A stretch of 32,024 bases of DNA. Origin: a virus. Taxonomy: Duplodnaviria; Caudoviricetes. This document shows, one piece after another, positions 1 through 9,628 of this stretch; the first letter of the stretch is position 1, and the number at the start of each line of letters is the position of its first letter. The stretch covers positions 1 through 32,024 of IMG/VR virus record IMGVR_UViG_3300048577_000472; one strand, given 5' to 3'. Position numbers and translations under genes: made by a program. Below the pieces are notes generated by a model that had not been told where the DNA came from, ran no database searches, and saw nothing but the letters and a program-made list of their open reading frames with translations.

Positions 1-435
1 TTGGTGCACCAAGCCCGACGCTTAAGCCTGCTGGACCTGCCCAGCCTCAACATGGACGCGGATATTGCGACGTCCATGAGCCGGATCGTTGAAAGCTCCG
101 GGCTTTCGCGGGCCGAGGCCGTGGACAGGCTCAACGAAGCGGCGCGGCGTTACGGGGTGCGCCTTTGCGGCGGCAACGCCGAAGCCCTGACCCTGGCGAC
201 CTTTGAAAAATGGCTCAACCCCAACGAATCCAAGAACGTGCCGAGCACCAGGGCCTTGAATGTCTTTTGCCACGTGTTCGGTGCGCCGGAACCGCTGGAC
301 TTGCTGGCTAGGTCTCATGGCCAAGGTTGGCGGGTCATCGACGGCGAGGACGCCCGACTCCTGGAGTGGGCGCGGACGGAGCAGGAAATCAAGCGTCTTC
401 GGGCGCGCAAACGCAAAATCGAGACGGAACTATGA
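1..435 (+). CDS. Phage early regulatory protein (CII-like/HTH); may be 5'-truncated at the window edge
   Basis: ORF from TTG at position 1; FEKWLNP...VPS motif and C-terminal coiled coil; its stop overlaps the next ATG. Confidence 0.6.
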   Translation: MVHQARRLSLLDLPSLNMDADIATSMSRIVESSGLSRAEAVDRLNEAARRYGVRLCGGNAEALTLATFEKWLNPNESKNVPSTRALNVFCHVFGAPEPLDLLARSHGQGWRVIDGEDARLLEWARTEQEIKRLRARKRKIETEL

Positions 436-650
436 AGCGTGAAGGAAGGAAAATCCGCGCCTGGATGGTGGAAAGGGGCATCACGGTGTCCGACGTGGCC
501 CGCCGGGCCGGCATCACCCGGTCCATCGTCTCGGAAACTGTTCACGGACAGCGCAACAACAGGAAGGCCTTGCGGGAGCTGGTGGCCGTGGGGTGTCCGG
601 TGCGGCTGCTTGGTTTGCCGGAAGATATGAAGGGAAAGGAGGCTGCGTGA
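432..650 (+). CDS. Ner/Cro-like HTH DNA-binding protein (72 aa)
   Basis: ATG 432 overlaps the previous stop; MKREGRKIRAWMVERGITVSDVARRAGITRSIVSETVHG is an HTH; position upstream of the transposase matches Mu ner. Confidence 0.75.
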   Translation: MKREGRKIRAWMVERGITVSDVARRAGITRSIVSETVHGQRNNRKALRELVAVGCPVRLLGLPEDMKGKEAA

Positions 651-976
651 TGGAAATGGTCATGGACATGTGGCGAGTGAACCCCAGTCGTTGCGATCCG
701 CCGGAGCAGTGGGTGCCAAGAGAACCTGCGAGCGGGTGTATTGGCTGGCTTGTCGCGCAACCTGTTGATGAAAGGCGTTTCATGGTGGCGGGCGGCCAGT
801 TCGACGTCGATGCGTTCGACGACGCGTCGGTAGGTACGTTTTTTCCTCTTACAAAGGACGGTTACCGCGCTGCTCATGTCGCCCTGCGTCGCAGACTACG
901 GCAACTCGGACACGTCCGCCAGGAAGGGAGCACGGTTGATATTTTTTGCAACGATCCTCTCCCCCTGCCGGCTTGA
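650..976 (+). CDS. Hypothetical phage protein
   Basis: GGAGG SD and GTG/ATG start overlapping the previous TGA; the stop lies just before the first ribozyme. Confidence 0.6.
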   Translation: MEMVMDMWRVNPSRCDPPEQWVPREPASGCIGWLVAQPVDERRFMVAGGQFDVDAFDDASVGTFFPLTKDGYRAAHVALRRRLRQLGHVRQEGSTVDIFCNDPLPLPA

Positions 977-983
977 ACCCCTT

Positions 984-1045
984 TGCGAAACCGCCCCTGC
1001 GGGCGGTCGTCGGACGGTGGCGCGTCCGGCCTGATGAGCAGCCAT
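984..1045 (+). ncRNA. Type II hammerhead ribozyme HH1; predicted cleavage after C1008 (GUC)
   Basis: Stem II TGC984-986/GCA1038-1040; GAAA 987-990; stem III CCGCCC/GGGCGG; GTC 1006-1008; stem I GTCGGACG1009-1016/CGTCCGGC1023-1030; CTGATGA 1031-1037; pseudoknot of loop TGGC1018-1021 with 3' GCCA1041-1044. Confidence 0.93.
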
Positions 1046-1063
1046 AAAAGAGCGGTAGCGACA

Positions 1064-3175
1064 ATGCAAGACACGGTTACAGCAAAAGACATCGCACAAG
1101 CGCTGGGCATATCAGAACGAGCCGTCCAGGCGCGGGCTATGAAAGATTCCTGGCCTTTTGAAGAAGTCTCCTGCCGTGGCGGCAAGCGCCGTCTTTACCC
1201 CTTGGCCTCCCTGCCCGAGGACGTGCGCCAGGCTATTGCCGCCGCCATGCTGGCCGGTGGCCCTGCACCGACAACCCCGCCCGCCGTTGCCGCCTCGTCG
1301 CTTCCAGCCGTGCCCACCAAGGCCCCCGCGCCCCTGGCCAGTCTGACCGCCCACCAGCGTGAAACCGCCCTAGCCCGGCTGGCCTTCGTCCGGGAGATTG
1401 AACGCACAACCCCTTTGATTGGCAAGGAAAAGGCCATCCGCAATCTGCTCAAGGCAGCCGAGGACAACGTGCTGGCTCCCCGGTTGGCGGAATTGATTCG
1501 CGTGGCCAACGACCGCTTCGGTAACGGTCGCGGCCTCTCCCGCCGACGGCTCTACGACTGGTGTTCGCTTTTTACCGAAGGCGGCGAGGCGGCGCTTGCG
1601 CCTCGGCATCCCGGCAAGGTCATGACCGTGCCCGATTGGGCACCGGCCTTTCTGGCCATCTGGCAACAGCCCCAAAAGCCGTCCATCGCCGACGCCTACG
1701 GACAGTTCGCCAAGGCCTACGCGGGGACGCCGCCTTCTATTTTCGCCGTGCGACGGTGGCTGGACAAGATGGCCAAGCCCGACCGCGAGGCCGGCCGCGT
1801 CACGGGCAACGCCCTGCTGCATTTGCGTCCGTACAAACTCCGCAAAACCGACGAGTTGTGGCCCACGGACGTCTATACGGCGGACGGCACCACGTTTGAT
1901 GCGGAAATTCAGCACCCGTTGCACGGCAGCCCCTGGAAACCCGAGGTGACGTTGGTCGTGGACGTGGCCACGCGGCGGGTGGTGGGACTCGCCGTTGGCG
2001 AGGCCGAGTGCGCGGGGACAGTGCTGGATGCGTTGCGCGTGGCCTGCCTGTGGGGTGGAATCCCCTCAATCTTCTACGTGGACAACGGTTCAGGCTACAA
2101 CAATGCCATAACGACAGGTGAAGGGTTTGGCATTCTGACCCGCCTGGATATCGAACTGCGTAACTCCATTCCCGGCCGCCCCCAGGGGAAGGGTCTTATG
2201 GAACGGGCGGTACAGACCATTTGCGTGGCCGCATCCAAGCGTCTCCCGACGTGCAGCCACGCCGATATGGATGAAGACGCGGCCCACAAAATTTTCAAGA
2301 TCACGCGGGCGCAGGTCAAACAGGCCGCAAAACGGCAGTTGCTCCCAACTTTCGAGGAATTCAAGCACGTTCTTTTGGCTCGTGTGGACGAATACAACGC
2401 CAGCCCGCACCGATCCCTGCCTAAAATAATTGACGCCGCCACGGGCAGACGGCGGCACCTCACGCCGGACGAACACTGGCAAAGCTTTCTTAAGCGCGGC
2501 TTCGCGCAACTCCCTGTTCCGGAGGTCTATCGGGACGAACTTTTCATGCCGGGCATCCCGCGAAAGGTTCGCAGCGGCATGGTGCAGCTGTTCAACGGCC
2601 TCTATTACGCCGAGGAATTGGCGGACTTCCACGGCGATTACGTGGAGGTGCGTTACGACATGTGGGACAGCTCGCGCGTTTACTGTTGGACAACAGCGGG
2701 CGAGAAAGTCTGTACGGCTGTACTTGACGGCAATGCCATGGACTACTTCCCCATGACGCAGATCGAGGCCGCCCGAGAGCGGCGGGCCAACGGCAAAGTG
2801 TCACGTCTGGCCAAAAAGCTTGAGGCGGCCATGCCCGGTGCGACGGTGCTCCGACCCGAGGCCACGCCCACCTACACCATGCTTGCCGACTCCGTGATCG
2901 GAGACGGACGCGGGCCGCAAAGCACATCCACGCATGAGATCGTGGTGGAGGCGCTGCCGTCCGCCACTCCGGCGGAGCCTTCCGCCAAGCGGCCCACGTT
3001 CTGGAGCATACAGGATCGTTACAGCTGGCTGATGCACAATCCCGACAGATGGACGGACAAGGACCAGGCGTGGGTGGCCTGGTACGTGGCCAGCAAACAC
3101 TATGATGATCTGCACACGTACTTCGAGGCCCGGTGCATCGCTTGGCCAGGATACGTCCAAAAATCAAAGCAATAA
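1064..3175 (+). CDS. MuA-type DDE transposase
   Basis: N-terminal Mu-type HTH (TAKDIAQALGISERAV); catalytic motifs YTADGT, YVDNGSGY, KGLMER; Mu transposase C-terminal region. ATG 1064 preferred over TTG 983. Confidence 0.95.
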   Translation: MQDTVTAKDIAQALGISERAVQARAMKDSWPFEEVSCRGGKRRLYPLASLPEDVRQAIAAAMLAGGPAPTTPPAVAASSLPAVPTKAPAPLASLTAHQRETALARLAFVREIERTTPLIGKEKAIRNLLKAAEDNVLAPRLAELIRVANDRFGNGRGLSRRRLYDWCSLFTEGGEAALAPRHPGKVMTVPDWAPAFLAIWQQPQKPSIADAYGQFAKAYAGTPPSIFAVRRWLDKMAKPDREAGRVTGNALLHLRPYKLRKTDELWPTDVYTADGTTFDAEIQHPLHGSPWKPEVTLVVDVATRRVVGLAVGEAECAGTVLDALRVACLWGGIPSIFYVDNGSGYNNAITTGEGFGILTRLDIELRNSIPGRPQGKGLMERAVQTICVAASKRLPTCSHADMDEDAAHKIFKITRAQVKQAAKRQLLPTFEEFKHVLLARVDEYNASPHRSLPKIIDAATGRRRHLTPDEHWQSFLKRGFAQLPVPEVYRDELFMPGIPRKVRSGMVQLFNGLYYAEELADFHGDYVEVRYDMWDSSRVYCWTTAGEKVCTAVLDGNAMDYFPMTQIEAARERRANGKVSRLAKKLEAAMPGATVLRPEATPTYTMLADSVIGDGRGPQSTSTHEIVVEALPSATPAEPSAKRPTFWSIQDRYSWLMHNPDRWTDKDQAWVAWYVASKHYDDLHTYFEARCIAWPGYVQKSKQ

Positions 3176-3194
3176 GAACCGACAGGGAGAAAAC

Positions 3195-3941
3195 ATGCGT
3201 AAACAATTCGTGAAAACCGAGAACTACAGCCGCTTTACGGCCGGCATTGCGGCTGTGGAGCAACGCGGCGCGGCCGAGGCCGGCATGCTGCTGGTGCATG
3301 GCGCGCCGGGGTTCGGCAAAAGCCACATTGTCGGACATTGGGCGGCCGAGGCCGGGGCGGTGTTCCTGCGGGCCAATGTCGATTGGACGCCGAAATACTG
3401 TCTGGTGGAGCTGGCCAAGGTGTTGCGCGTGGACCCCTCGGGAACGGCGCAACAACTGTTTTCCCGCCTGCTTGAGCGGGTGGTCGAAACGCAAACGCCC
3501 ATCGTCATCGATGAAGCGGAATTTACCCTGCACCAGGGAGCTGCGGCCCTGGAAAAGGTGCGCGACCTCTCCGACCGGGCCGAAGTGACGGTGGTCTTGA
3601 TCGGCATGGAACGCATTCAGCAATCCATAGCCCGGCACCGTCAGCTGTCCAGCCGGATCGCCCAGGTGGTCGAGTTCGTGCCCTCGACCGTGGCCGACGT
3701 GGAACAGGCCTGCAAGCAACTCTCCGAAGTGGCCATGAGTCCGGCGCTCATGGCCGAGGTACACCGCATTTCGGGTGGCCGCATGCGCGAGGTGCTCAAC
3801 GTGATCGCCACCATCGAACGTCTGGCCCAACTCAACGGCTTGGACACCGTGGCGGTGGCCGACCTGGAAGGCGTGGCACTGGCCCATGACTGGCAAAACC
3901 GCACACCCAAGACGGTCCGCGCGGCCGCCGGGGGGCGTTAG
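3195..3941 (+). CDS. MuB-like AAA+ transposition ATPase
   Basis: Walker A GAPGFGKS, Walker B IVIDE; follows the transposase; SD GGGAG before ATG 3195. Confidence 0.92.
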   Translation: MRKQFVKTENYSRFTAGIAAVEQRGAAEAGMLLVHGAPGFGKSHIVGHWAAEAGAVFLRANVDWTPKYCLVELAKVLRVDPSGTAQQLFSRLLERVVETQTPIVIDEAEFTLHQGAAALEKVRDLSDRAEVTVVLIGMERIQQSIARHRQLSSRIAQVVEFVPSTVADVEQACKQLSEVAMSPALMAEVHRISGGRMREVLNVIATIERLAQLNGLDTVAVADLEGVALAHDWQNRTPKTVRAAAGGR

Positions 3942-4520
3942 ATGGCTTGGTCCGGGCTGGCGATCCTTAACGCCTTGGCGAACGGGCCGAAGCTGACGCG
4001 GCAGATTGCGGCCGGCTTAGGGAAATCTCCCGATGCCGCGCGTCTGTGCCTGGAAACTCTGCGCCGTAAAGGGTTTGTGACCTCGGTCGAGGGCTCGCAC
4101 ACGCTCACCGACAAGGGACGTACGGCCTTGGCCGAAGGCCGAGAAATCACTTCCGGCCCTTGCGGCGGCGCGGCGGCCAGCCGTCGGGAACTGACCCTGC
4201 GGCAAAAGGCTTGGCGCGCCATGGGCATCCGCGACGGCTTTAGCCTGGACGATCTGCTGACCATGCTGTGCGACGGTAGCGAAAAGAGCGCCGCGCGCAA
4301 TCTCAACCGTTACCTATGCGCCTTGGAAGCGGCCGGCTACCTGATGCCCTTGCCCCGGCGGGGCGACGGCGCGGCCAAGCGCTGGCGATTGCGGCGCGAC
4401 CGGGCCACCGGCCCGGAGGCCCCGGCTTTGAACACGCGCACACGGCGGGTGACGGACTGCAACACCGGCCAGGTGTTCGATCTTGACCGCTCCAAAGCGG
4501 AGGTCGCCCATGGCTGCTGA
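3942..4520 (+). CDS. Winged-helix DNA-binding protein (two probable wHTH domains)
   Basis: Coupled to the B stop; HTH-like segments (TRQIAAGLGKSPDAARLCLETLRRKG; ARNLNRYLCALEAAGYL). Confidence 0.7.
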   Translation: MAWSGLAILNALANGPKLTRQIAAGLGKSPDAARLCLETLRRKGFVTSVEGSHTLTDKGRTALAEGREITSGPCGGAAASRRELTLRQKAWRAMGIRDGFSLDDLLTMLCDGSEKSAARNLNRYLCALEAAGYLMPLPRRGDGAAKRWRLRRDRATGPEAPALNTRTRRVTDCNTGQVFDLDRSKAEVAHGC

Positions 4521-4869
4521 TTGGCTTGTCCTGCTTTCTGCCGAGGCGACGCGCACGTCCAAGGCGGCCGTGGGCCGGTCGCTCGGCTACTCCCGCACTG
4601 CCATCAGTCTGGTTTTGGCCGGCAAGTACCCCGGCGGCACGGACAAACTGGCCGCCAAGGTGCTGGCGACGCTTGGCTGGGTGGTCTGCCCGCACCTTGA
4701 GCGCCGGGTAAGTCCGGTCGAATGCGCCGGCAACGCTCGCGAAATGCCCACGTCCAGCCCGGCGGCTTTGCGCTTGTGGCGGGCCTGCCAGACCTGCCCG
4801 CACCGCCCGGCCATCCCCACGAAAACACAACACCGGCCCGAAGCGGTCGGAAAGGAGCATGCGGCATGA
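4510..4869 (+). CDS. HTH protein with C-terminal Cys cluster
   Basis: SD GGAGG; SKAAVGRSLGYSRTAISLVLAGKY HTH; CPH...C...CQTCPH. Confidence 0.75.
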   Translation: MAADWLVLLSAEATRTSKAAVGRSLGYSRTAISLVLAGKYPGGTDKLAAKVLATLGWVVCPHLERRVSPVECAGNAREMPTSSPAALRLWRACQTCPHRPAIPTKTQHRPEAVGKEHAA

Positions 4870-5486
4870 CGACGACGGCAACCCCCATCCCGGACGGCTA
4901 CATGGCCAACGCCAAGGGGCATTTGATTCCTTTGGAGACGGTAAAGCCGGTGGACAAACTGCGCGACGAACTGACGCGCAACATCGTGGCCGCCGCCAAG
5001 GGCGTGCAAACGGCCATGCGGGATTTCCGCGCCAACACCCTGGGCGACATCCAGGCTTTTGCCGACCTCTCGGCCGAGAGGTACGGGGCCAAGCGCGGCG
5101 GCGACAAAGGCAACCTGACCCTGACCAGCTATGACGGTCAATTCAAGGTGCAAGTGCAAATCAGCGAGCGCATGGCCTTTGGCGAACAGTTGCAGGCGGC
5201 CAAGTCGCTTATCGACGAGTGCCTGACCGAATGGGCGCAGGACAGCCGTGAGGAAATCCGGGCCATCATCAACCAGGCATTCGACGTGGACAAGGAAGGC
5301 CGGGTCAACGTCGGCGCGATCCTGGGCTTACGCCGTCTCGACATCCAGGACACGCGCTGGCGCGGAGCCATGGAGGCTATTGCCGACAGTTTGCAGGTGG
5401 TGGGCTCGAAAAAGCTCCTGCGAGTCTACGAACGGCAGGAAGACGGCAGCTATGACCCTATCGCCATGGACATGGCGGCGCTGTGA
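4866..5486 (+). CDS. DUF3164-family early protein of Mu-like phages
   Basis: GYMANAKGHLIP...VDKLRD, GGDKGNLTLTSYDG, AFDVDKEG motifs; ATGA overlap with the previous gene. Confidence 0.85.
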   Translation: MTTTATPIPDGYMANAKGHLIPLETVKPVDKLRDELTRNIVAAAKGVQTAMRDFRANTLGDIQAFADLSAERYGAKRGGDKGNLTLTSYDGQFKVQVQISERMAFGEQLQAAKSLIDECLTEWAQDSREEIRAIINQAFDVDKEGRVNVGAILGLRRLDIQDTRWRGAMEAIADSLQVVGSKKLLRVYERQEDGSYDPIAMDMAAL

Positions 5487-5710
5487 TTTGTGCGGCGCTG
5501 CCTATAGAGGTGCGGCAGGCCTTGGACCGGATGCCGGCCGTCACCACGCCGTGCGCGGCTTCGGCCCTGGCTCTCGGCATCGCCGCCGCCGGCCTGGAGG
5601 TCGGCGCGAACATAGCCAAGGGTCGGGACGACAAGGCGCGCCAAGCGGCGGCTAAGCTCGCTGCCGCCGGCATTCGGCTGGTGGAACATTTGGACCAGGA
5701 CTGGCCGTAG
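5483..5710 (+). CDS. Hypothetical protein
   Basis: GTGA overlap with the upstream stop; fills the operon gap. Confidence 0.5.
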   Translation: MICAALPIEVRQALDRMPAVTTPCAASALALGIAAAGLEVGANIAKGRDDKARQAAAKLAAAGIRLVEHLDQDWP

Positions 5711-5729
5711 GCCGGCCGAGGGAGGCGAT

Positions 5730-6023
5730 ATGGACGGCAAGCGGTTTTACAGGTGCACGGAATGCGGCCACATGGGCGCGGCGCTGTCTGTCGGCGGCGA
5801 GACGCTGTGCGAAAACTGCGCCAGCCGGGGCGTGGTCGCCTGCGACGCGCCAGCGGATCGGCCAGTGCCCATGCGGGTTCTTCGGAGCGCGGAAAAGCAG
5901 GCCTTGACCTGGAAGCGGCAGTCCGAAGCGCTGTCGCGGCTGGTCAATCGGGCCATCAAAAACGGCCATTTGCCCGCGCCCTACGCTGGCGAGGCGCAAC
6001 GGATCATGGCCGGCAGGGCTTAA
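5730..6023 (+). CDS. Zinc-ribbon hypothetical protein
   Basis: SD GGAGG; CTEC...CENC motifs. Confidence 0.7.
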   Translation: MDGKRFYRCTECGHMGAALSVGGETLCENCASRGVVACDAPADRPVPMRVLRSAEKQALTWKRQSEALSRLVNRAIKNGHLPAPYAGEAQRIMAGRA

Positions 6024-6037
6024 AGGGGGAACGGATC

Positions 6038-6448
6038 ATGGGCTACGCCGGCAACTACCATTCAAAATGGCTTGAGCAACAGCTTCAGCATCCCTGTTCA
6101 GCGTTGGGTCGAGAGGTCGCCAACATCCTCGGTTATGTGGGAAATGGTCTTTATAATGCCCCAATAAACATTGAAAAAATCGACTGGACACATCCGTACA
6201 TCATTGAAGTTGTGTGGTCGTCTTACATGGCCAGTTGGGATTTTCCCGTCCTCACACGTCTGTGGGTTGAATGTACTCGGCGTATGGTCAGGGTTTCCGT
6301 GGAGGGCTGCGCACCTCGCAGACTGAAGCTCCAATTTCACAAACGCCATCAACGAAATGGGGATGTGTTTGAACGGCTCCCGGATGTTGAGGAACTTGTG
6401 GCCATGGTGGATGCGGAATGGGGCAGGATAAGGTTCAGCCTACCCTAA
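6038..6448 (+). CDS. Hypothetical accessory protein, lower GC
   Basis: SD GGGGGA, ATG 6038; visibly AT-richer codons; stop TAA abuts HH2. Confidence 0.75.
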   Translation: MGYAGNYHSKWLEQQLQHPCSALGREVANILGYVGNGLYNAPINIEKIDWTHPYIIEVVWSSYMASWDFPVLTRLWVECTRRMVRVSVEGCAPRRLKLQFHKRHQRNGDVFERLPDVEELVAMVDAEWGRIRFSLP

Positions 6449-6510
6449 TGCGAAACCGCCCCCTGCGGGCGGTCGTCGGGACGTGGCGGTCCCGACCTGA
6501 TGAGCAGCCA
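6449..6510 (+). ncRNA. Type II hammerhead ribozyme HH2; predicted cleavage after C6474 (GUC)
   Basis: TGC-GAAA 6449-6455; stem III CCGCCC/GGGCGG; GTC 6472-6474; perfect stem I GTCGGGAC6475-6482/GTCCCGAC6489-6496; CTGATGA 6497-6503; GCA; pseudoknot TGGC/GCCA6507-6510. Confidence 0.94.
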
Positions 6511-6521
6511 AGGAGGTCGAC

Positions 6522-6782
6522 ATGGCTCACGTGTATTGCTGGGCAACCGGGATGTTAGAATTCGGCGAGGCCGTGCCGAATGGGGCACTTTCCCTCGCTG
6601 TCGGCGACATGGAGTCGCTTCGCGATGTCGTCGCCGGGTCGGCAACTCTGGCCTATGACAACGTAACGTGGCTGATCCCTGGGTTTGCTCTGGCCGAGGG
6701 GCATAACGCCCAGATGGATGCCGTGGCCAAGTTTGCTCGCAACCTCCAGGTGTCTCTCGTCTCGGGAGGACGCCATGGCTGA
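6522..6782 (+). CDS. Small early protein resembling Mu-like 'host nuclease inhibitor' annotations
   Basis: SD AGGAGG 6511-6516; YCWATGMLEFG...PNGAL...LIPG motif recalled from Mu-like prophage proteins; function is not established. Confidence 0.65.
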   Translation: MAHVYCWATGMLEFGEAVPNGALSLAVGDMESLRDVVAGSATLAYDNVTWLIPGFALAEGHNAQMDAVAKFARNLQVSLVSGGRHG

Positions 6783-6835
6783 TAGGAGCTTGACAAAGCT
6801 GAATGGCTCCATGGCCATACGGCAAGGAGACAATC

Positions 6836-7027
6836 ATGTATCTGGGTGACGAAGTCGTCAGCCGACGCCACCAGGGGACGATTCGGATCGTGATTGTCTA
6901 CAGCAACGGCGGCGGCGTTGGTCGCAAGATCAAGAAAAACGGCCAGCCAGGCCGGCAGGAGGTTTGCTTACGGCCGGACGACGTTACGGCCGTTAGAATG
7001 TGCCTCCTTGGCTGCCAAGCCCGTTAG
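6836..7027 (+). CDS. Hypothetical protein
   Basis: SD AAGGAG before ATG 6836. Confidence 0.55.
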   Translation: MYLGDEVVSRRHQGTIRIVIVYSNGGGVGRKIKKNGQPGRQEVCLRPDDVTAVRMCLLGCQAR

Positions 7028-7036
7028 GAGAAAACC

Positions 7037-7309
7037 ATGAACAATGCCCAAGGTGTTTACTGGTTGCGCGTCGTGGAGTCGGGGCCGCATCGCTCCACCC
7101 TGGAAGCCGAGGAAGGCTATAAAAACTGCCGCCGGCCGGGGAAGTCCTTTCGGGTCATGCTCGGACCAGATGGCCCGATATGCCCCGGATGTTCCAGGGT
7201 ATGCCGTATTCCGGCCGCTTCCGGTCTGACGCGGGATGACGAGATCGTTATGCAAAAGCACGTCACAATCCGGCAAAAAGGCTCCCCTCGGGTCAAAAAA
7301 GAGGTCTGA
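7037..7309 (+). CDS. Hypothetical protein (CxxC)
   Basis: SD AGGAG; CPGC motif. Confidence 0.65.
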   Translation: MNNAQGVYWLRVVESGPHRSTLEAEEGYKNCRRPGKSFRVMLGPDGPICPGCSRVCRIPAASGLTRDDEIVMQKHVTIRQKGSPRVKKEV

Positions 7310-7312
7310 TCC

Positions 7313-7732
7313 ATGCGTGTAGAATCCCGTAATAGCCTGCTGGCAAAAGTCCATATCGCCAAGAAAGACTTGGGGTTGGATGATGACACCTACCGGGCCA
7401 TGTTGGAGAACCTGACCGGCAAGGAAAGCGCGGCAGCCCTGACCGTGCCCCAGCTAGTGCGGGTGGTGGCCGATCTGCGCGCGCAAGGCTGGAAAGGTCA
7501 AGCCAACAAGTCGGCCACGCGCCGCAAGCCGGTGGTGCGGTCCGAAGCGGCCGGCTACCTGGACAAGATCGAGGCCCTTCTAGCCGAAGCCAAGCGGCCC
7601 TGGTCCTACGCCTCGGGCATCGCCAAACGCATGTACCGGGCGGACAAGCTGGAATGGTTGAATGCGGACCAGATGCGCGGCGTCATGACGGCGCTTATGC
7701 GCGACGCCGTGCGCCACGGGAGGCCGGCATGA
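7313..7732 (+). CDS. gemA: GemA/gp16 (DUF1018) family protein
   Basis: LAKVHIAKKDLGLDDDTYRAMLENLTGKESA signature; directly upstream of the mor-like gene, as in Mu. Confidence 0.9.
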   Translation: MRVESRNSLLAKVHIAKKDLGLDDDTYRAMLENLTGKESAAALTVPQLVRVVADLRAQGWKGQANKSATRRKPVVRSEAAGYLDKIEALLAEAKRPWSYASGIAKRMYRADKLEWLNADQMRGVMTALMRDAVRHGRPA

Positions 7733-8148
7733 GCGACAATAGCCTGCCCGCCTCCGTGGCGGAACTGGTGGACCTGCTCGGCCTGCAAACGGCCATGAAG
7801 CTGGTGCGCGGCCTGGGCGGCACCACGTTTCCCGTGCCCAAGCGGCAGACACCGCTTGGGCAGCGGCGCTACGAAATGCTGGCCGATGTGGTGGGCACGG
7901 AAGCGGCGGACGCACTGGTTGGCTGCTACGGCGGCGGGGAACTCTACGTGCCCCGGTGCGCCGCCGCCTTGCAGGCCGCCCGCGACGCCGAGATCAACGA
8001 GTATTTCGTAACCGAAACCAACAAGGGCCGGTCGTCGGCCGAGGTTGTTTTCCATTTGGCCAGACGTTACAAGCTTTCCGATAGGCGGGTATGGCATATT
8101 CTCAAGACGCTGCCCGTCAAGCCGAATGACCAGTTGCGGTTGTTCTAA
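7729..8148 (+). CDS. mor: Mor/C-family transcription activator
   Basis: LPASVAELVDLLG, YGGGELYVPRC, RDAEI, LARRYKLSDRRVWHIL C-terminal HTH. Confidence 0.9.
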   Translation: MSDNSLPASVAELVDLLGLQTAMKLVRGLGGTTFPVPKRQTPLGQRRYEMLADVVGTEAADALVGCYGGGELYVPRCAAALQAARDAEINEYFVTETNKGRSSAEVVFHLARRYKLSDRRVWHILKTLPVKPNDQLRLF

Positions 8149-8173
8149 GGACCGTTTTTTGGGGGGGTGGAAT

Positions 8174-8503
8174 ATGTCATTTTTTGGGTACGCGATACTT
8201 TTAGGAGCCGCCATAGGTGTCTTTATTGGAGTTTGGCGGTACATCCCATGGTTTGGTCCAATTTGCTCTATTATTCTGATTTCGTTTTTAGGTTATGGGA
8301 TACTTGTTGAAGTTATCGTCAGAACAGCTAACCCAGCCATGTGGTTTCAGATTGTTCCTGCCGCGATCTTTTTTGGTATTGGCGGCCTTGCTTGTCTTTG
8401 GATTAAGCGTGTCCCACAGTATAAGCTCTATGGAGCCATTCTCTTTTTCGGCGCATGCGGAATATGTGGCTTGCTCTTATTAAAAGGCGCGGCAGCCAGT
8501 TAA
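8174..8503 (+). CDS. Low-GC integral membrane protein (about 4 TM helices), moron-like
   Basis: 109 aa, almost entirely hydrophobic; AT-rich relative to its flanks. Confidence 0.75.
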   Translation: MSFFGYAILLGAAIGVFIGVWRYIPWFGPICSIILISFLGYGILVEVIVRTANPAMWFQIVPAAIFFGIGGLACLWIKRVPQYKLYGAILFFGACGICGLLLLKGAAAS

Positions 8504-8511
8504 GCTAGTCC

Positions 8512-8557
8512 CCTGAACCCCTTCACCTATCACCGCCCCCGGTGCGCCGCCTAGTAT
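8512..8557 (+). promoter_or_regulatory. Late promoter 1 (lysis/packaging): activator box CCTGAACCCCTTCACCTATC plus -10 TAGTAT
   Basis: 20-bp box identical to those at 16348 and 27515; TAnnnT exactly 20 nt downstream; no -35. Confidence 0.8.
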
Positions 8558-8583
8558 AGGCGGCGTCCGGGGGCGGTCCTTTT
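8532..8583 (+). terminator. Long GC hairpin with short T-tract overlapping late promoter 1
   Basis: ACCGCCCCCGG8532-8542/CCGGGGGCGGT8567-8577 and CGCCGCCTA8545-8553/TAGGCGGCG8557-8565, followed by CCTTTT. Confidence 0.55.
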
Positions 8584-8615
8584 CCGCCTCCAAACCTCAT
8601 TTACTGGAGGCGAAA

Positions 8616-8963
8616 ATGCTCAACATCCGTTCCCCTCGCATGGTCGTTTGCGGCTTCGTCGCACTGACCCTGCTGGCCCTGGTCGTCTTCCTCTCGCCGC
8701 AGCAAGGGCCGGTGGCCCTGTACAAGCTGTCGTTGGTGCTGGCCGCCGGCTATGCCGGTTACTGGCTCGACCGCTGGGCGTTTCCCTACGCCCGGCCGGA
8801 CAGCTATCTGCAAATCCCAAACTGGCGAAAGGTCATCGCTGGCCAAGAGTCCCTGGCCGACAATCCCGTAGCCGAAGGCCATGCCATCCCCTTTGCGGCC
8901 GCCATGCTGCGCCGGGCCGTGATCATGGGCGCGTGCATGCTGGCCGTGGGCCTGGGGCTGTAG
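8616..8963 (+). CDS. Putative holin (2/3-TM family)
   Basis: SPQQGPVALYKLSLVLAAGYAGYWLDRWAFPYARP and AAAMLRRAVIM...VGLGL motifs; first lysis gene. Confidence 0.85.
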   Translation: MLNIRSPRMVVCGFVALTLLALVVFLSPQQGPVALYKLSLVLAAGYAGYWLDRWAFPYARPDSYLQIPNWRKVIAGQESLADNPVAEGHAIPFAAAMLRRAVIMGACMLAVGLGL

Positions 8964-8965
8964 CC

Positions 8966-9628
8966 ATGCGCCGCCTGGGCAGTTTTCTGTTGGATCGCCT
9001 CGTTGAGCTACTGGTTGCCATCGGGCTTTCCTTATTGCTCATGCCAGCCGGCGCACGCGGTGCTCGGGCCGAAACCATCCCGCCCGAAGCCGCCAAGCAC
9101 CGGGCCGAACTGACCCGGTGCGGCCGTTACGCCTTTGGCCTGGACGCGCCCATCGCCACGCTCGCCGGGCAGGTCCACCAGGAAAGCCGTTGGCGGGCGG
9201 GTGCCGTCTCTCCGGTCGGCGCGCGCGGGCTGGCGCAATTCATGCCCGCCACGTCCGCGTGGATCGCTGACCTTGTGCCCGAACTGGCCGACAACGCGCC
9301 GTTTAATCCCGGCTGGGCCATACGCGCCCTGGCTACCTACGACAAATGGCTATGGGACCGGGTTCACGCCCGCGACGATTGCCAACGCATGGCCATGGCC
9401 CTTGCCGCCTACAACGGCGGCTTGGGCTGGGTGCAACGCGACAAGACCCTGGCCAAGGCGCGCGGCGCGGACCCGTTAACTTGGTTCGAGCAGGTTGAGC
9501 GTTTTAACGCCGGCCGTAGTACCGCCGCCTTCCGGGAAAACCGGGGCTATCCCCGGCGCATCCTGGGAACCCTCGAACCACTCTACATCCGGGCCGGATG
9601 GGGCCAGGGGGTGTGCCATGCCAAGTAA
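8966..9628 (+). CDS. Endolysin, SLT lytic transglycosylase with N-terminal signal/anchor
   Basis: QVHQESRW catalytic Glu, GLAQFMPAT, ALAAYNGGLG. Confidence 0.92.
   Translation: MRRLGSFLLDRLVELLVAIGLSLLLMPAGARGARAETIPPEAAKHRAELTRCGRYAFGLDAPIATLAGQVHQESRWRAGAVSPVGARGLAQFMPATSAWIADLVPELADNAPFNPGWAIRALATYDKWLWDRVHARDDCQRMAMALAAYNGGLGWVQRDKTLAKARGADPLTWFEQVERFNAGRSTAAFRENRGYPRRILGTLEPLYIRAGWGQGVCHAK

Follow-up and report, generated by a model that had tools for sequence, protein, structure and literature searches.

A predicted type II hammerhead ribozyme in the slot upstream of gemA and mor in a Mu-like provirus

A 32,024-nt stretch of Caudoviricetes DNA (positions 1 to 32,024 of IMG/VR record IMGVR_UViG_3300048577_000472; here called the window) carries on its + strand, at 6449 to 6510, an element (HH2) that, judged from its sequence, is a true type II hammerhead whose structure is under selection and in which loop I and the 3' tail form a pseudoknot. 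It very probably self-cleaves. The slot that HH2 occupies, upstream of gemA and the gene for a Mor-family transcriptional activator (mor), is conserved and lies in a variable stretch between a DUF3164 gene and gemA-mor. We lean, with modest conviction, toward reading HH2 as a constitutive cut that would insulate the downstream gene block from the upstream accessory genes, acting as punctuation and not as a switch.

The window is a 32-kb provirus (IMG/VR class provirus) with Mu-type genes in Mu order, i.e., a ner-like helix-turn-helix (HTH) gene, transposase A (start at 1064), transposase B, two HTH genes, the DUF3164 gene (4866 to 5486), small accessory open reading frames (ORFs), gemA, the Mor-family activator gene, and lysis, head, and tail genes. 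It holds the genes that define a Mu-like transposable prophage, namely, those for transposases A and B, GemA, a Mor-family activator, and Mu-type head and tail proteins. The nearest named GemA relatives come from a Desulfovibrionaceae assembly (77% identity) and a Solidesulfovibrio assembly (68% identity), and the host is therefore likely a member of the Desulfovibrionaceae.

HH2 lies between two accessory ORFs on its own strand. The upstream ORF (6038 to 6448; 136 amino acids; PHROG 22261, of unknown function) has a stop codon that adjoins HH2, and no homolog of it was found at the relatives' loci searched or in the 11 genome loci listed. The downstream ORF (6522 to 6782; 86 amino acids; here called gene 6522) matches PHROG 1518, annotated as a host nuclease inhibitor (E = 1.9e-17). 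It is followed, also on the + strand, by two small accessory ORFs within 6836 to 7309 (6836 to 7027, with the start picked by its Shine-Dalgarno [SD] sequence, and 7037 to 7309), gemA (7313 to 7732; Pfam PF06252), and mor (7729 to 8148; Pfam PF08765, PHROG 836). A weak terminator-like site at the mor stop (8136 to 8163) is a possible operon end, in a count of 12 such sites against 10.1 expected. In a weak test for internal sigma-70-type promoters, none was called on the + strand in positions 1 to 9000. A perfect TTGACA hexamer stands at 6790 to 6795 without a good -10 partner, and a 24-codon ORF with a strong SD sequence (6775 to 6849) overlaps the end of gene 6522.

The family model RF02276 (Hammerhead_II) matched positions 6448 to 6513 over its full length (model positions 1 to 66) at 75.3 bits against a cutoff of 37 (E = 3.2e-14). 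At an E value of ≤1, the window contained only one other match, a second hammerhead (HH1), and none of 14 control genomes matched (0/14). As the initial annotation had placed it, HH2 starts directly after the upstream stop, with T6449 following the TAA at 6446 to 6448, and both the sequence and the RF02276 match confirm that position. The 5' strand of stem II, G6450-C6451, pairs with G6504-C6505, and T6449 and A6506 could form a third stem II pair, as predicted in the minimum free energy (MFE) structure. The conserved core element GAAA (6452 to 6455) leads into stem III (6455 to 6473), which the RF02276 alignment and folding define as 7 bp between 6455 to 6461 and 6467 to 6473 and for which folding of 6400 to 6570 gave pair probabilities of 0.73 to 0.86. 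Hammerheads cut after C17 of a GUC by consensus, which on the RF02276 alignment puts the predicted cleavage site of HH2 after C6474 (6474 to 6475).

Stem I (6475 to 6496) comprises 8 bp between GTCGGGAC (6475 to 6482) and GTCCCGAC (6489 to 6496), with calculated pair probabilities of 0.88 to 0.92, and encloses loop I, GTGGCG (6483 to 6488). The catalytic core CUGAUGA (CTGATGA in the DNA; 6497 to 6503) was recognized in the sequence and on the RF02276 alignment, and is followed by the 3' strand of stem II (6504 to 6505), A6506, and the pseudoknot strand GCCA (6507 to 6510), which pairs with TGGC at 6484 to 6487, a pairing backed by covariation. The last pseudoknot base, A6510, does adjoin an SD-like AGGAGG (6511 to 6516), as had been claimed; the SD lies 5 nt ahead of the ATG at 6522. 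The hammerhead core CUGANGA, GAAA, and UH is complete in HH2, the last as TC at 6473 to 6474. The topology is that of type II, with loops closing stems I and III and stem II open-ended, and TGGC/GCCA provides the at least four loop I/3'-tail pairs that mark this type. The whole-segment folding z-score of HH2 was unremarkable (-1.09, in a range of -1.2 to 0.05 over six segments), and folding of the longer precursor (6400 to 6570) without the pseudoknot gave an alternative fold as the MFE structure. With so ordinary a z-score, the evidence for HH2 is the family model and covariation, not folding energy.

Selection on RNA structure had initially been argued from a comparison of HH2 with HH1. The stem I strands quoted for the two were correct: both bases differ in pairs 6 to 8, and pair 2 has a single-base change (U-G to U-A). 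The double changes at pairs 6 to 8 admit another reading, in which one pair was gained and another lost. Moreover, the HH1 stem I recurs identically in 8 of 125 other phage copies, and the HH2 stem I is found within one base in 2 of the 125. Since both alleles occur in other phages, the two-copy argument is weak; the alleles are best read as circulating variants, which need not have diverged within this phage. For the same reason, an origin of HH2 from HH1 by local duplication and divergence is not favored.

What upholds the claim of structural selection, although not the use of the two copies as independent evidence for it, is a broader alignment. A pattern scan of viral contigs gave 125 loci and so sampled the roughly 430 stretches estimated to exist in IMG/VR. 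Stem I with its loop had the modal length of 22 nt in 116 of the 125 copies, and 79 distinct regions of this length were aligned. Two-sided changes occurred at all eight stem I pairs, with 98.4% of cells paired, compared with 21 to 56% in slid controls. None of 500 shuffles reached the whole-structure covariation score of the 79 sequences, a control that relatedness can inflate. When the set was narrowed to 10 copies from the window and its seven closest relatives, two-sided changes still appeared at five of eight pairs and 99.5% of 210 cells were paired. The first pattern fixed the tail, and a second scan for variant tails returned 33 loci, or 23 after removal of 4 with poor stems and 6 duplicates. 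At least four loop-tail pairs could form in 16 of these 23, compared with 7.3 when tails were shuffled (0 of 2,000 shuffles equaled the observed count), and compensatory pseudoknot variants such as TGAC/GTCA were clear. The alignment of homologs that had been proposed as a check, once run, showed covariation of stem I in both the 79- and the 10-sequence sets and of the pseudoknot among the 23 variant-tail copies.

Some finer patterns accompany these alignments. Copies whose loop I contains GGC tend to have T just 5' of stem II (21/35), and those with GGT tend to have A there (38/54), as if the A after stem II had two alternative partners, one that would extend stem II by a third pair and one in the loop. 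In one viral contig (L024), five matches to the pattern fall within 3 kb, and several of them have a near-identical SD-bearing spacer downstream. Variant hammerheads in Bilophila-type prophages (L137, L138, L142, and L143) have either an extra base past the core or a stem I of 6 bp whose loop and tail differ as well.

The slot itself was examined in GemA-bearing viral records, the first 50 of 80 being searched whole, with redundancy kept and many records being fragments. RF02276 was present in 33 of the 50 (14 of 19 near-complete records) and missing from 17 (5 of 19). All 40 hammerhead matches shared the strand of gemA. They preceded it by 10 to 2,816 nt in 39 cases, immediately so in 4, and followed it at 1.5 kb in the remaining one. 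In all seven closest relatives (L128 to L131, L210, L211, and L226), the ribozyme sits between a homolog of ORF 5730 and gemA, directly after that homolog in six. The gene after the ribozyme is gemA in three of these relatives and another accessory gene in four, and a gene 6522 homolog stands beside the ribozyme in none of the seven. A fixed link between gene 6522 and the hammerhead was rejected: a direct search gave two weak loci, and gene 6522 homologs lie directly downstream of a hammerhead in one contig (L030) but upstream in five (L018, L054, L153, L157, and L165). The initial proposal that HH2 frees an mRNA spanning gene 6522, gemA, and mor holds insofar as the predicted cut would release such an mRNA and the slot is conserved, but gene 6522 is not a fixed partner.

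The element also occurs in cultivated phages, with 81 matching records, 76 of them from Pseudomonas phages, and with DMS3, JBD30, and MP22 among the matches. The DMS3 copy (L308:3999-4070; record positions 8950 to 9021) scores 66.2 bits, follows the DMS3-16 stop immediately, lies one gene ahead of gemA and the late activator gene, falls within the same 2.9-kb distance upstream of gemA as the 39 matches above, and is unannotated. Replacement of an absent hammerhead by another ribozyme class was rejected: at 18 negative loci, consisting of 9 of the 17 negative viral records and 9 of 44 genome loci without a pattern match, no other Rfam ribozyme was found within the fetched flanks (0/18), a point of difference from PMC10085705, which names both hammerhead and twister ribozymes. 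One record without a type II hammerhead (L161) carries an RT-15 RNA motif (RF03018, 142.7 bits) at 6587 to 6789, 1.2 kb upstream of gemA.

This conservation bears on the idea that the cut is a timing device, giving the gemA-mor piece a lifetime of its own and so setting the buildup of the Mor-family activator and the onset of late genes. Nearly all matches (39 of 40) falling within 2.9 kb upstream of gemA, 4 of the 40 immediately before it, the retention of the ribozyme in seven of seven closest relatives while its neighbors change, and the position of the DMS3 copy would all fit such a role. However, the stretch upstream of gemA is also an accessory region that tolerates insertions, one match lies downstream of gemA, 5 of 19 near-complete records (redundancy kept) do without the ribozyme, and another copy can stand before the transposase A gene. 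We consider a timing role possible and rather doubtful.

That other copy is HH1, a second type II hammerhead at 984 to 1044 on the + strand (RF02276 match at 983 to 1047, 59.8 bits), between an ORF at 647 to 976 and the Mu transposase A gene with its ATG at 1064. The pretransposase slot is filled in the window and in L210 but is empty in L131, L132, L133, and L211. In L210, identical hammerheads lie 5 kb apart at 2170 to 2225 and 7203 to 7258, suggesting recent duplication or gene conversion. Each hammerhead of the window is preceded by an ORF (647 to 976 and 6038 to 6448) that L210 lacks at the same slot, and the stem I alleles of the two differ, a pattern that suggests ORF-plus-ribozyme cassettes arriving by recombination.

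A further question is whether the RNA, while cleaving, is a 60-nt conserved stretch kept mainly as homology for accessory-gene swaps, with little effect on expression. In the four closest viral relatives, the ribozyme is an island of 82 to 88% identity between unrelated flanks (4/4); neighbors vary on both of its sides; and L210 has identical copies at both slots without the preceding extra ORF, while the window has an extra ORF and a distinct allele at each. All of this is as expected if the ribozyme marks a cassette boundary. Against it, stems change with their pairs kept, and the CUGA.GA core varies at N7 among the 39 copies listed, which argues for selection on catalysis and not on DNA identity. 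We regard this explanation as unlikely when taken as the main reason for retention; it can coexist with insulation, and the rival explanations are in general not mutually exclusive.

HH2 touches both a stop codon and an SD sequence, and we compared this layout across the family in 98 clusters of copies, 96 of which had enough flank. An ORF stop fell within -1 to 6 nt of the ribozyme in 71 of the 96, compared with 3.3% at random positions, and an SD core plus start codon followed just downstream in 53 of the 96, compared with 3.0% in the control. The modal distance from ribozyme to start codon was 12 nt (11 nt for HH2). Among copies reached via GemA and not via the pattern, a stop lay within 6 nt in 35 of 39. 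The SD core started 0 to 5 nt past the pseudoknot in 50 of 98 copies and at exactly zero in 6, and zero to one base separated the stop from stem II in 40 of 96. Of the 10 annotated junctions of DMS3, 7 have gaps between -16 and 2 nt, and these operons are compact in general. Contact with the stop codon and the SD is the family norm and fits compact operon spacing. The SD contact that had been singled out in HH2 is real, but it is the family default and a matter of compact spacing.

The same contacts could in principle make HH2 a translation-coupled switch, in which ribosomes at the upstream stop or at the SD compete with ribozyme folding, so that cleavage reports translation or gates initiation at 6522. 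From the general size of the ribosome footprint, a ribosome at the 6522 ATG would cover the pseudoknot strand, and the 40 of 96 copies in which stem II follows the stop almost directly are also in keeping with a switch. In a Pseudomonas-type subgroup that includes DMS3, an in-frame ATG lies 2 to 4 nt past the pseudoknot, so any SD there would sit inside the ribozyme core; this too would suit such coupling. (The annotated start of DMS3-17 is about 110 nt further downstream than this ATG and may be miscalled.) On the other hand, SD offsets are spread over 0 to 5 nt, compaction explains the spacing, and the SD of HH2 lies outside the structure, with an opening energy of 2.29 to 2.39 kcal/mol in precursor and product alike (the pseudoknot being outside the folding model). 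Folding calculations without the pseudoknot gave no riboswitch-like alternative structure in which one state conceals the SD, and an anti-SD helix spotted by eye (6493 to 6498 with 6514 to 6519) was rejected at a probability of ≤0.02, again with the pseudoknot outside the model. Gating by a metabolite of the glmS type finds no footing either, in that the window had no other Rfam match and the downstream gene differs among relatives. We judge a translation-coupled switch quite improbable.

Insulation by a constitutive cut could work as follows. A single early transcript would run from the ner-like gene to mor and end near the weak terminator-like site. In the portions of PMC9936078 available, gemA and mor belong to a single early operon of the Mu-like phage Fc02, and mor is the last gene of the operon in Mu. 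HH2 would cut this transcript without a trigger after C6474, between the accessory stop and the next ribosome-binding site, and if HH1 and HH2 both cleaved in vivo, three pieces would result. The upstream piece would have the stem III hairpin as its 3' end, 26 nt beyond the stop codon. The downstream piece, of about 1.7 kb from gene 6522 to mor, would begin with a 5'-OH and a flush 8-bp stem I hairpin with no unpaired 5' base, and would have its own SD. The products should part, since only the 2- to 3-bp stem II and the core would join them and both strands of the pseudoknot belong to the 3' piece.

Activity in this setting has precedent, as tandem prophage hammerheads were active in vitro and one set was also active in Escherichia coli (PMC3088659). 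According to the same source, another ribozyme became about 20-fold slower when its pseudoknot was trimmed from 6 bp to 4 bp; by analogy, the 4-bp pseudoknot of HH2 may give it a modest rate.

The consequences of the cut would depend on how the new 5' end is treated. A hairpin-capped 5'-OH end would hinder 5'-end-dependent decay, and the stability and translation start of the downstream piece would then be independent of the upstream accessory genes; in the sections of PMC3997798 at hand, a 5' hairpin can stabilize an mRNA and impedes RppH. The same sections also describe degradation of the 5'-OH product of the glmS ribozyme by RNase J. Matches to the RNase J family scored above the cutoff in all four Desulfovibrionaceae-type genomes, which represent hosts of relatives, and RNase E/G was found in all five genomes tested. 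Because the relatives' hosts encode RNase J, the cut might either stabilize or destabilize the downstream mRNA. An essential role is made less likely by the 5 of 19 near-complete GemA-bearing records without RF02276.

The opposite outcome, a glmS-like destabilizer whose 5'-OH product is handed to RNase J so that downstream expression is damped or shortened, draws on these RNase J matches and on the glmS precedent (PMC3997798). It is set against a product that begins with a flush 8-bp hairpin and against retention of the ribozyme in Pseudomonas phages (76 of 81 records), the one Pseudomonas genome tested being without an RNase J match, and we hold it to be a poor candidate.

In the text of PMC3088659 (Perreault et al., 2011) considered, type II hammerheads have the same topology, core, short stem II, and pseudoknot as HH2, from which we found no structural difference, and hammerheads with this pseudoknot are described as common in bacteria. 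The same text reports several copies flanking gene blocks in a prophage, with inconstant neighbors and a proposed role in polycistron processing, as seen here; it gives neither the spacing to stop and SD nor the position ahead of gemA-mor. According to PMC10085705, the genes with which bacterial hammerhead and twister ribozymes associate most strongly are those of Mu-like phages, which matches the setting of HH2, and the reason for this association was called unknown there. The available parts of PMC6765202 and PMC10085705 call the role of bacterial and phage self-cleaving ribozymes largely elusive, and PMC10651486 used a hammerhead only as a tool. In the literature covered by title and abstract, with subscription papers mostly outside, no in vivo function was reported for these phage hammerheads and none for that of DMS3.

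The glmS ribozyme, as presented in the accessible passages of PMC6765202 and PMC3997798, shares with HH2 self-cleavage upstream of a ribosome-binding site and a 5'-OH mRNA product; in those passages, its activity depends on a metabolite and RNase J1 then degrades the mRNA, whereas HH2 lacks a ligand domain and would yield a product that starts with a paired hairpin. The nearest functional likeness to an insulating cut is engineered. In synthetic insulators of the RiboJ type, cleavage by a hammerhead trims off the sequence upstream, and the SD is then preceded by a defined 5' end that bears a hairpin. Those insulators have a different permutation and are placed after a promoter, whereas HH2 is natural and lies inside an operon.

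Prophage type II hammerheads and their proposed role in polycistron processing have been known since 2011, and HH2 is a known kind of ribozyme in its usual setting. As one more of several hundred copies, it adds little beyond pointing to DMS3. At the level of the family, a speculative extension, to which we attach limited credence, is that a hammerhead is kept in this slot by Mu-like phages whose hosts are distant from one another (Desulfovibrionaceae, Pseudomonas, Chromobacterium, and others) so that gemA-mor would become a hairpin-capped, longer-lived mRNA that times late activation regardless of the upstream accessory genes. The element deserves further attention for the conservation of its slot ahead of gemA-mor and for its presence in DMS3, where an unannotated copy in the same slot of a well-studied phage makes the role of the ribozyme directly testable.
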